Shown piece after piece: positions 61,302 through 62,501 of a stretch of DNA of 64,000 nt; the stretch's first letter is position 1, and each line of letters begins with the position of its first letter. Location of the stretch: NCBI GenBank assembly GCA_947630175.1, contig CANRGJ010000013.1, positions 7,090 to 71,089 on the forward strand. Direction: 5' to 3'. The position numbers were made by a program, and so were the translations under genes. Under the pieces are notes generated by a model. It made no database searches and was not told the origin of the DNA. It was given only the letters and a program-made list of their open reading frames with translations. This DNA comes from an uncultured Ruminiclostridium sp. GTDB taxonomy: Bacteria > Bacillota > Clostridia > Oscillospirales > Ruminococcaceae.

Positions 61302-61359
61302 GGTCAGACACTCCTTCCGATAGTTGATAGTTTTTAGTTGTTAGTAGTTAGTTTGTGAA

Positions 61360-61480
61360 AAATAAAAAGCACGGGAAGACGCTCCCGTGCCGAAAAATCA
61401 TAGTTATAGATCTTCCGCAAAACATTGACCCTTTCGCAAAGCTGGGGGTGAGAGCAAATCTTCTTTTTGTTATGCACTTA
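61360..61480 (-). promoter_or_regulatory. L20-leader-like attenuator upstream of infC-rpmI-rplT
   Basis: AGAAG..GCTCTCACC motif then GCACGGGA/TCCCGTGC terminator + TTTTT between promoter and infC; position matches the Firmicute L20 leader. Confidence 0.7.
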
Positions 61481-61483
61481 TGT

Positions 61484-61512
61484 ATTATAGCAGGTGTTTT
61501 TCGGTTTGTCAA
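61484..61512 (-). promoter_or_regulatory. SigA promoter of infC operon
   Basis: TTGACA-17-TATAAT on minus strand. Confidence 0.85.
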
Positions 61513-61554
61513 GGGGGAAAGGGAAATTTTTTAGGAAAAAGCCGTTTTATCCTC

Positions 61555-61583
61555 TTGACAAAAGGGGAGAAGTCGTGTAAAAT
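61555..61583 (+). promoter_or_regulatory. SigA promoter divergent from infC, facing the 53-bp repeat array
   Basis: TTGACA-17-TAAAAT. Confidence 0.75.
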
Positions 61584-61589
61584 ATGACC

Positions 61590-61847
61590 GTCAGATGTTG
61601 GATCGCTCATCGTAGTGGCGTTTCGCTGCCGTCCGCTTAACCACAACGGGAAATGCGAACTGTTTTACTGGCGTTTCGCTGCCGTCCGCTTGACCACAAC
61701 GGGGAATGCGACCTGTTTTATTGGCGTTTCGCTGCCGTCCGTTTATCCACAACGGGAAAGGCGACCTGTAAAAGCGATCATATTTTAAAAAATCTGTCCC
61801 GCCTCAAGCGGGAGCTTAAGGGCTGTTGAAACAGTCCTTAATTTTTT
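61590..61847 (+). ncRNA. Candidate ncRNA with three tandem 53-nt hairpin units
   Basis: Promoter, GATCGC/GCGATC closing stem, repeats at 61616/61669/61722, terminator TAAGGGCTGTT/AACAGTCCTTA + T-run; no ORF. Confidence 0.6.
61616..61774 (+). repeat. 3 x 53-bp tandem repeat
   Basis: Invariant TGGCGTTTCGCTGCCGTCCG and CCACAACGGG in all three units. Confidence 0.95.
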
Positions 61848-61868
61848 AGGCACTTCTTGCTTTATTTG

Positions 61869-62501
61869 TCAACTCCACCCTTTTAATTCCTCTAAAAACT
61901 CTTTGTAATCATCGTCAGACCAATAGAAGGTCAGTTCTTCCTCCGAATAATCTTCAGGCTTATCACGCATAAAGCCGTTGTCAACGCCATATCCGAATTT
62001 TTGCAGCACTGCCTGTGCAAACTCCCTGAAAAACATTCCTATTCCCGTAATTACGTTGCCGTCCTCCACTACTCCCTTATGTACAAAGTTATCTTTTTCG
62101 ATGAAGTTAAAAGTATCTGCCATTTGCATAAAATAGCCTGCCGTAAATTTTTTTCCGTTTAATATCCCTGCTTTTGACAGCAGGACGGGAGATGATGAGA
62201 TAGCCGCAAAAACAACGTCCGAATTTTCACCGCTTTTCAGAAAATCGATCAGCTTTTCATCAAATAATGCAGGCAGCGGATTTACGGTGCCCGGCAAGAT
62301 CACGCAGGAATAATCGGTTATTTTTACTTCTTCCGTTGTTTTTGTGGGGAAAACACGCAGTCCTTCTTCGCTTGAATACTCTTTGTTATCGGTTGCAATA
62401 AAGTCTATCTTTTCTCCGAACCAGACTGACAGCGCAGATGTAAGGCAGGTTATTTCCTGCAAGGAAAAATCAGGATACAATAAAACTGCAAATTTTCTCA
62501 T
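61869..62501 (-). CDS. DJ-1/PfpI family protein
   Basis: VLLYPDFSLQE, VILPG, AAISSSPVLLSKAGIL.GKKFT, VVEDGNVITG; nucleophilic Cys position reads Ser. Confidence 0.85.
   Translation of the reverse strand: MRKFAVLLYPDFSLQEITCLTSALSVWFGEKIDFIATDNKEYSSEEGLRVFPTKTTEEVKITDYSCVILPGTVNPLPALFDEKLIDFLKSGENSDVVFAAISSSPVLLSKAGILNGKKFTAGYFMQMADTFNFIEKDNFVHKGVVEDGNVITGIGMFFREFAQAVLQKFGYGVDNGFMRDKPEDYSEEELTFYWSDDDYKEFLEELKGWS

Follow-up and report, generated by a model that had tools for sequence, protein, structure and literature searches.

A probable ToxI-family antitoxin RNA gene standing without a toxin partner beside infC in an uncultured Ruminiclostridium

The repeat array and its toxin-linked relatives

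The window analysed here is a stretch of 64,000 nucleotides (nt) from the genome of an uncultured Ruminiclostridium sp. (assembly GCA_947630175.1, contig CANRGJ010000013.1), designated G000. Between the divergently transcribed infC operon and a convergent DJ-1/PfpI gene it carries an array of tandem repeats, which is the subject of this work and which we relate to the RNA antitoxins (ToxI) of type III toxin-antitoxin systems. A first-pass annotation, made from the sequence alone, had described three tandem 53-nt modules forming a self-contained unit divergent from infC, and the analysis of repeats, promoter and terminator bore out this description (Table 1). Tandem Repeats Finder (TRF) reported a 53-nt unit repeated head-to-tail in 2.9 copies at 61616-61769 with 91% matches and a score of 259, and a 29-nt core pattern occurred three times in the window as compared to zero occurrences expected from 100 shuffles. 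Comparison of the three units revealed that all differences among them are confined to loops and linkers, as had been noticed before.

The array possesses transcription signals of its own. The promoter TTGACA-17-TAAAAT, already recognised in the first reading, is of the sigma-70 type, and transcription presumably starts near 61590. The promoter is identical (36/36) in G005, a sister species of the same genus, and the layout TTGACAAA...TATAAT seen here recurs upstream of every homologous array that is linked to a toxin gene. Two hairpins followed by a T-run had been proposed to end the RNA. This holds for the hairpin at 61816-61841, which is part of an intrinsic terminator; the hairpin preceding it has its T-run on the minus strand, terminates the convergent DJ-1/PfpI gene and lies outside the function of the RNA. 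The list of open reading frames (ORFs) of the window contains no meaningful ORF within or after the array and no plus-strand gene next to it, in agreement with the earlier reading. Between the terminator and the stop codon of the DJ-1 gene there are only 20 nt, so that no toxin remnant is left at this site.

Table 1. Features of the repeat locus, of its immediate neighbours and of the second array; positions refer to the window unless a contig is named.
Feature	Position	Strand	Remark
Sigma-70-type promoter of the RNA gene, TTGACA-17-TAAAAT	61555-61583	+	11/12 matches
Leader hairpin, GAUG 61594-61597 / CAUC 61608-61611	61594-61611	+	13-array alignment A6
Clasp 5' strand GAUCGCU, in the loop of the leader hairpin	61601-61607	+	Alignment A6
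Repeat unit 1, core	61617-61659	+	
Unit 1, stem 1, GGCG / UGCC	61617-61620 / 61627-61630	+	
Unit 1, pseudoknot, loop UCGC / GCGA	61623-61626 / 61655-61658	+	
Unit 1, inserted hairpin, UCCG / CGGG	61632-61635 / 61647-61650	+	
Repeat unit 2, core	61670-61712	+	Anatomy as unit 1, +53 nt
Repeat unit 3, core	61723-61765	+	Anatomy as unit 1, +106 nt
Trailer AGCGAUC, clasp 3' strand	61773-61779	+	A-run just before; pairs with 61601-61607
Intrinsic terminator of the RNA gene	61816-61847 (hairpin 61816-61841)	+	11-bp stem, 4-nt loop, T-run
Terminator hairpin of the DJ-1/PfpI gene (gene 61869-62501)	61797-61813	-	Minus-strand T-run
Promoter of the infC operon	61512-61484	-	12/12 matches
L20-leader-like attenuator before infC	61357-61471	-	RF00558, 32.8 bits, E 4.5e-4
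Second toxin-less ToxI-type array, 3 x 56 nt	G000:C11:84588-84750 (element 84540-84810; locus L002 1420-1715)		

Covariance models of the unit (R1, R2) together with a pattern scan recovered homologous arrays at the same site in G005, on one contig of G083, a genome of the same genus which carries two of them (A and B), and on an uncultured Oscillospiraceae contig (L027). Array B of G083 is followed by a terminator and an ORF matching both Pfam PF13958 ToxN_toxin (E 9.8e-31) and PADLOC AbiQ (1.5e-29). In L027, near-identical units are likewise followed by a terminator and then by a gene for a ToxN homologue of 204 amino acids (aa). The L027 toxin was used as a query to retrieve further homologues with 55-73% identity, and their upstream regions were examined. 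L159, L161, L162 and L166 carry an array of 53-nt units upstream of the ToxN homologue, and L164/165 and L168-L171 carry shorter units of other subtypes with leader and trailer as in the 53-nt arrays; parts of the arrays in L168 (~390-500) and L171 (~340-440) read as N runs, which hides their number of units.

Aligned over about 188 nt, the window array and those of L027, L162, L159 and L166 share 88-92% identity (92.0% with L027 and 92.5% with L162); with array B of G083 the value is 82%. All five precede PF13958 genes. Homology to arrays placed directly before such genes identifies the window repeats, as far as sequence can tell, as a type III antitoxin of the ToxI type. They appear to belong to the toxIN family and do not represent the undescribed RNA class which the first-pass annotation had suggested; its other proposal, an orphan antitoxin-like array, was sustained by this homology and by the lack of a ToxN gene in the genome.

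The toxin-linked copies adjoin further toxin-antitoxin or defence genes (HipA, Zeta toxin, a restriction enzyme), a neighbourhood typical of mobile defence islands. The arrays of L027 and L162 are 92% identical at the nucleotide level and the ToxN proteins encoded behind them only about 61% identical at the amino acid level, a disparity which leaves two explanations: constraint is far stronger on the RNA than on the toxin, or recombination moves arrays and toxin genes as separate modules. Some ToxN homologues (230-324 aa) have a long C-terminal extension; the ToxN of G083 (L131:1608-2483) comprises 291 aa with a lysine- and glutamate-rich, coiled-coil-like tail beyond the 160-aa ToxN domain. 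The G083 locus itself (G083:C195; L152 1380-1730, L131 1380-2483) is composite. Its array A is of the 53-nt type with a middle unit devoid of the long hairpin and is directly fused to a three-unit array of a different subtype (AGGAGUNC...CUCA...UCGGG) which has its own leader-like sequence and no toxin gene next to it. Array B with toxN lies 2.3 kb further, and a DUF6710 gene is found upstream. The arrangement gives the impression that antitoxin arrays have been stacked or exchanged within a defence island.

Fold of the repeat unit and the outer clasp

The fold of the unit was derived from an alignment of 27 units from 10 arrays (A4). The best-supported element was stem 1 (GGCG/UGCC), which the first-pass annotation had missed. 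The third pair of this stem (5-14) is C-G in 17 units, U-A in 10 and mispaired in none, and the fourth pair is G-U or G-C. The TCGC/GCGA pairing proposed earlier stood, as the second stem of a pseudoknot in which UCGC in the loop of stem 1 pairs with GCGA downstream. It is invariant within the 53-nt subfamily and covaries between subtypes (UCGC/GCGA vs CCGC/GCGG in L164). In L169 only unit 2 switches from GCUGC/GCAGC to ACCAC/GUGGU, and this double switch identifies the downstream tail as the pairing partner of the loop. The inserted hairpin (UCCG/CGGG) has an 11-nt loop and is paired in 97% of the cases, two of its pairs changing on both sides. For the whole unit 97.8% of cells are paired, a value which 0 of 500 shuffles reached. 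The CCGU/ACGG stem with a 13-nt loop, also part of the earlier description, was rejected as being in the wrong register: it leaves 6 cells unpaired and is broken by CCAUCC variants in G083, and the homologues favour UCCG/CGGG.

Covariation thus predicts for the window units an H-type pseudoknot in the order 1a-2a-1b-2b, as in ToxI. Its 2a-1b loop has 0 nt, and its long 1b-2b loop accommodates the inserted hairpin and, before 2b, an A-run. The ToxI repeat of Pectobacterium atrosepticum may likewise contain a GGUGAUUUGCUACC-like hairpin, which plays no part in the present argument.

The three exposed 11-nt loops on an autonomous transcription unit could suggest that the repeats were re-used as an independent regulatory RNA acting through its hairpin loops, either as a protein sponge or as a multi-seed small RNA (sRNA), as the first reading had considered. 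The loop sequence CUUAACCACAA is indeed fairly conserved among the closest arrays. The same loops are however present in toxin-linked arrays, where recognition by ToxN or folding explains them, and across the family the C-rich loop is the least conserved part of the unit, being replaced in a second array of G000 (described below) and absent in related subtypes. Moreover, a housekeeping regulator would be expected to be conserved throughout the genus or family, and the element is not. We consequently regard a regulatory RNA of this kind as very unlikely.

Beyond the single units, leaders and trailers of 13 arrays were aligned (A6). The leader hairpin GAUG/CAUC shows 100% pairing, with covariation at two of its four pairs (GC/AU/GU and AU/GC). 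Across the array homologues the loop of this hairpin has the consensus GAUYGCU and pairs with the trailer, AGCRAUC. In the window this gives a 7-bp helix, GAUCGCU/AGCGAUC, which is found in both the minimum free energy (MFE) fold and the centroid fold; among the 13 arrays it is paired in 98.9% of cells with 4 of 7 pairs covarying. The closing interaction GATCGC/GCGATC noted in the first reading is therefore real, extends to 7 bp and is part of a larger outer clasp. The entire clasp has 99.3% of its cells paired and double-sided changes at 6 of its 11 pairs, values which neither any of 500 shuffles nor a slid control approached. The lineage of the window has a compensated C-G pair at a position where 11 other arrays have U-A. 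Judged by this covariation, an outer pseudoknot encloses the whole array, the leader-hairpin loop pairing with the 3' trailer.

This arrangement is shared by ToxI arrays of gut Clostridia (L027, L159, L161, L162, L164, L166, L168-L170, G083 A/B and the window), in which the conserved leader AGAUGUUNGAUUGCUCAUC and trailer AAAAGCAAUC form the outer pseudoknot. The clasp resembles a split, fourth ToxI-like unit with the array in its long loop. No equivalent was seen in the pAW63 ToxI_Bt array or in an array of an E. faecium plasmid, and no description of an outer clasp of ToxI arrays was found in the literature examined.

Compensatory changes preserving the pairing of a plus-strand RNA, and a promoter and terminator framing the repeats, also bear on the question whether the array acts as DNA, e.g. 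as iterons, protein-binding repeats or a CRISPR-like array. Only the regular 53-bp spacing (about 5 helical turns) speaks for such an element, and we consider it almost certainly not the explanation. The exclusion of CRISPR for lack of unique spacers, made in the first-pass annotation, was justified: the units abut and their 10-nt linkers are themselves repeated. A CRISPR-like reading of the minus strand (GTCGC...GAAAC) was likewise discarded, since it has no spacers and promoter, terminator and covariation are all on the plus strand. The real CRISPR arrays of G000 (C45:245-2507 and C7:58496-58654) have different repeats (GTCGCCTCCTCACGGAGGCGTGAGTTGAAAC and ATTTCAATCCACGCCCCACGAGGGGGCGAC) unrelated to the ToxI repeats.

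Absence of the toxin and standing of the array

PF13958 was searched for in six frames. G000 and G005 had no match up to E 10, as compared to 4.6e-31 for the control G083, and a tblastn-type search with the G083 toxin gave no match. The arrangement infC-array-DJ-1 is the same in both genomes. The window locus is present in four DNA sequencing runs; two of these come from the sample in which it is best represented, possibly the source of the window. Their contigs contained no DNA similar to the L027 toxN (at least 80% identity), and the orphan locus was their only match to the L027 array.

These results speak against a split but complete system, in which the cognate toxin would be present in the same cell, encoded on an unassembled or unbinned replicon or unrelated to PF13958, with the array as a working antitoxin encoded away from it. 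The assembly is fragmented (46 contigs) and derived from a gut metagenome sample, which leaves room for such a replicon; its estimated completeness is however 100%, the sister genome lacks the toxin gene as well, and in all known type III loci the toxin is directly downstream (PMC3401426). A split system is therefore improbable.

A second toxin-less ToxI-type array was detected on another contig of G000 (Table 1). Its layout is that of the window array, with a promoter (TTGACA/TATAAT), a clasp (GAUUGCU/AGCAAUC) and a terminator, and the two arrays have the conserved 5' half of the unit in common. The sequence of its inserted hairpin differs, and its toxin specificity may for this reason be different. 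The array is located between ispD and a gene for a HAD hydrolase. Since the corresponding site of G005 consists of just 38 nt of unrelated intergenic sequence, the ~380-nt module would have arisen by insertion or replacement in one lineage or have been deleted in the other. A scan with the leader motif and TRF analysis of the whole genome found just these two arrays in G000, which is at odds with a dispersed genome-wide element, the outcome that would have spoken against the first-pass description.

Taken together, we interpret the window locus (~61590-61847, plus strand) as very probably a stand-alone ToxI-family type III antitoxin RNA gene without a toxin partner in the genome. In ToxIN systems transcription of the array is constitutive and the precursor is cut by ToxN into single repeats; the pseudoknot of each repeat, together with its single-stranded tails, binds two ToxN molecules, giving a closed inactive cyclic complex (PMC3401426, PMC8860590). 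By analogy, a precursor of ~255 nt would be made constitutively from the window locus. A cognate ToxN, if present, would cut it into 53-nt monomers, and the pseudoknot of each monomer would bind ToxN and hold it in the inactive cyclic complex. In a cell devoid of ToxN, the RNA would be expected to persist unprocessed in its clasped form.

Several observations weigh against this interpretation. There is no toxN behind the array, the partner that defines such a locus; in a complete type III toxIN locus the toxin gene directly follows the terminator. The antitoxin activity of the RNA is accordingly a prediction. The 46 contigs are probably metagenome-derived, and a toxN on an unbinned plasmid is possible. 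A cmscan of 61555-61850 with Rfam 15, one of the checks proposed earlier, gave no match at E <= 10 for the array. The nested MFE of the whole RNA is not better than that of shuffled sequences (z -0.59), as expected if the fold is pseudoknotted. The divergence of the RNA between G000 and G005 (10 of 191 positions, 5.2%) is just mildly below that of third codon positions in five flanking genes (65 of 772, 8.4%), and one change in G005 (UUUCAC) breaks a pair of the pseudoknot; the same variant is found in a toxin-linked array. Finally, assemblies of gut metatranscriptomes contain 83-nt unitigs (53+30) of the repeat family and nothing from the flanks. These contigs are 90-95% alike, share variants with toxin-linked arrays, possibly come from toxin-linked relatives and are no proof that the window locus itself is transcribed. 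No RNA run holds the second array, and the RNA evidence consists of assembled contigs from related arrays only.

Given an antitoxin gene without its toxin, the array is, on balance, best regarded as a survivor of toxin loss, with an RNA that is intact and expressible and has no current task. Loss of the toxin first is the only viable order of decay, and intact orphan antitoxins are accordingly expected as intermediates. The alternative that selection maintains the array as an immunity gene, whose RNA disarms ToxN arriving on mobile elements, is possible and holds a smaller share of our confidence. Plasmids or prophages would be the carriers, the benefit would be anti-addiction or relief from abortive infection, and the clasp would stabilise the unprocessed precursor. 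Two different orphan arrays in one ToxN-free genome fit this explanation, as do the orphan common to two species with an unchanged promoter and no insertions or deletions in the RNA, and the compensated clasp pair specific to the orphan lineage. The window array also falls inside the diversity of toxin-linked arrays, and it is known that ToxN is suppressed in vivo by ToxI or pseudo-ToxI in excess (PMC3475682).

The substitutions between G000 and G005 do not decide in favour of maintenance. Nine of the ten changes in the RNA keep pairing or fall in loops and linkers; four hit paired positions, three of which keep pairing as G-U. infC and the DJ-1 gene are 97.2% and 96.8% identical overall. The pattern is compatible with weak constraint and no proof of it, as an RNA divergence not clearly below the neutral proxy does not demonstrate purifying selection on the orphan array. 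The placement of the DJ-1 gene beside infC is limited to G000 and G005, and in G070 a PPK2 gene follows DJ-1; synteny is consequently uninformative on the ancestral state.

The distribution of the element argues against maintained immunity, too. The 53-nt subtype is patchily distributed: of 101 genomes sampled from the genus the unit models detected it in 3, and a set of 400 family genomes (166 genera) added none; weaker isolated matches (E > 1e-6) lay in coding sequence and were treated as noise. BLAST of 60 relatives matched only G005, and covariance models were required to reach further. An exact tandem pattern scan of genome contigs (GCGTTTCGCT..GCGTTTCGCT) returned nearly exclusively chance or coding repeats among its loci, L027 being the one true homologue, and a metagenome scan with the toxin alignment yielded 2 loci only. 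No array was found in the phage and plasmid DNA collections searched. In viral contigs the leader motif gave 23 matches, all of them by chance in coding sequence; neither an array nor a ToxN gene lay downstream of any of these. A rare element, no such arrays on phages or plasmids in these collections and no close toxN in the samples with the locus are points against a maintained immunity gene.

Regardless of which explanation applies, the window locus is a clean example of an intact, promoter-driven ToxI array present in two species, in a genome without ToxN. It bears on the decay of toxin-antitoxin modules, with the toxin lost first, and on the question whether RNA antitoxins can serve as standing immunity against toxins of mobile elements. 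The clasp, supported by covariation, and the inserted hairpin extend the structural repertoire of ToxI RNAs, and mutating either of them offers a direct way to study how stable the precursor is and how the complex assembles. Should the orphan be no more than a relic, the consequence is a point of annotation: the label for such arrays should be "ToxI-like, toxin absent", and a new sRNA class should not be made of them. One can also speculate, with due reserve, that antidote-only ToxI genes constitute a selected class of chromosomal immunity elements, in which a clasp-stabilised precursor, made constitutively, stands ready in toxin-free cells and disarms ToxN/AbiQ delivered by plasmids or prophages. 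G000 would then carry two such genes with different specificity hairpins, and the outer pseudoknot would be an unnoticed device which protects the precursor or keeps the three units together for assembly of the 3:3 complex.

On the other side of the intergenic region, the promoter of the array stands back-to-back with the minus-strand promoter of infC. The element upstream of infC is the only Rfam match near the array and lies on the opposite strand; its terminator is as expected, and its TTGACA-17-TATAAT promoter is perfect and carries a TG extension. Its score is below the gathering score of RF00558 (58.7), and the element (61357-61512, minus strand) is probably a divergent clostridial form of this L20 leader family. 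Around the -35 boxes the two divergent promoters (61505-61562) have an extended inverted repeat in common (TTTGTCAAGGGG/CCTCTTGACAAA, 11 of 12 positions complementary); TTGACAAA is found in the toxin-linked arrays also.

Comparison with known systems

Antitoxins of toxIN loci have repeats of 31-62 nt in 1.9-5.6 copies (PMC3401426, Table 2), and the window array (53 nt, 2.9 copies) lies inside this range. As reference systems we considered ToxI/ToxN of P. atrosepticum pECA1039, E. coli and Bacillus thuringiensis pAW63 as well as AbiQ/antiQ of Lactococcus. The window locus shares with them a promoter upstream of the tandem repeats and a Rho-independent terminator right after them. Each repeat moreover has the ToxI order of pseudoknot strands with an A-rich stretch before stem 2b, and the homology to arrays linked with PF13958 or PADLOC AbiQ proteins connects the window array to the ToxN/AbiQ toxins. 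Unlike the reference systems, the window locus has no toxin gene. Its unit has 53 nt and not the 34-36 nt of the references because of the hairpin inserted in the 1b-2b loop, and the array is clasped by a pseudoknot of leader and trailer, of which the pAW63 and E. faecium plasmid arrays showed no equivalent.

The linkers between the units differ as well. The A-rich cleavage motifs of ToxI are AA^AU and AAA^AA, and in the E. coli ToxI adenines within the pseudoknot loop make A-minor contacts (PMC8860590). The inter-unit linkers of the window array are U-rich and variable, and the only conserved A-run of the unit (GRAAK) is inside the pseudoknot loop, so that no cleavage site is evident from the motifs.

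Long units are not without precedent. Besides the order 1a-2a-1b-2b, one case with a hairpin inserted in the 1b-2b loop has been described, and there are units of ~60 nt which Blower et al. 2012 could not align (PMC3401426). The group II ToxI of Clostridium sp. HGF2 (entry 70) and the ~60-nt entries have long units and come from gut Firmicutes, like the window array, and the former is described as having an extra hairpin in the variable loop. These entries are defined by their adjacent toxin, which the window array lacks.

With respect to the missing toxin, the closest counterpart is the pseudo-ToxI of Pectobacterium phage PhiTE, a ToxI-like array without a toxin gene which can suppress ToxN when expressed (PMC3475682). 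It is carried by the phage, where it is selected as a means of escaping abortive infection, whereas the window locus is chromosomal and situated between infC and DJ-1/PfpI. No paper describing chromosomal orphan ToxI arrays was found in the literature searched. Among protein antitoxins, chromosomal orphans of type II have been proposed as anti-addiction modules. They resemble the window locus in that an antidote is kept without the poison and may confer immunity to incoming homologous toxins; type II antitoxins are however proteins, and the antidote encoded in the window is a processed RNA which requires the toxin itself for maturation. The ToxI family as such is already known; what appears new here is a variant that combines the toxin-less state of the array, its hairpin-bearing units and the clasp that encloses them.

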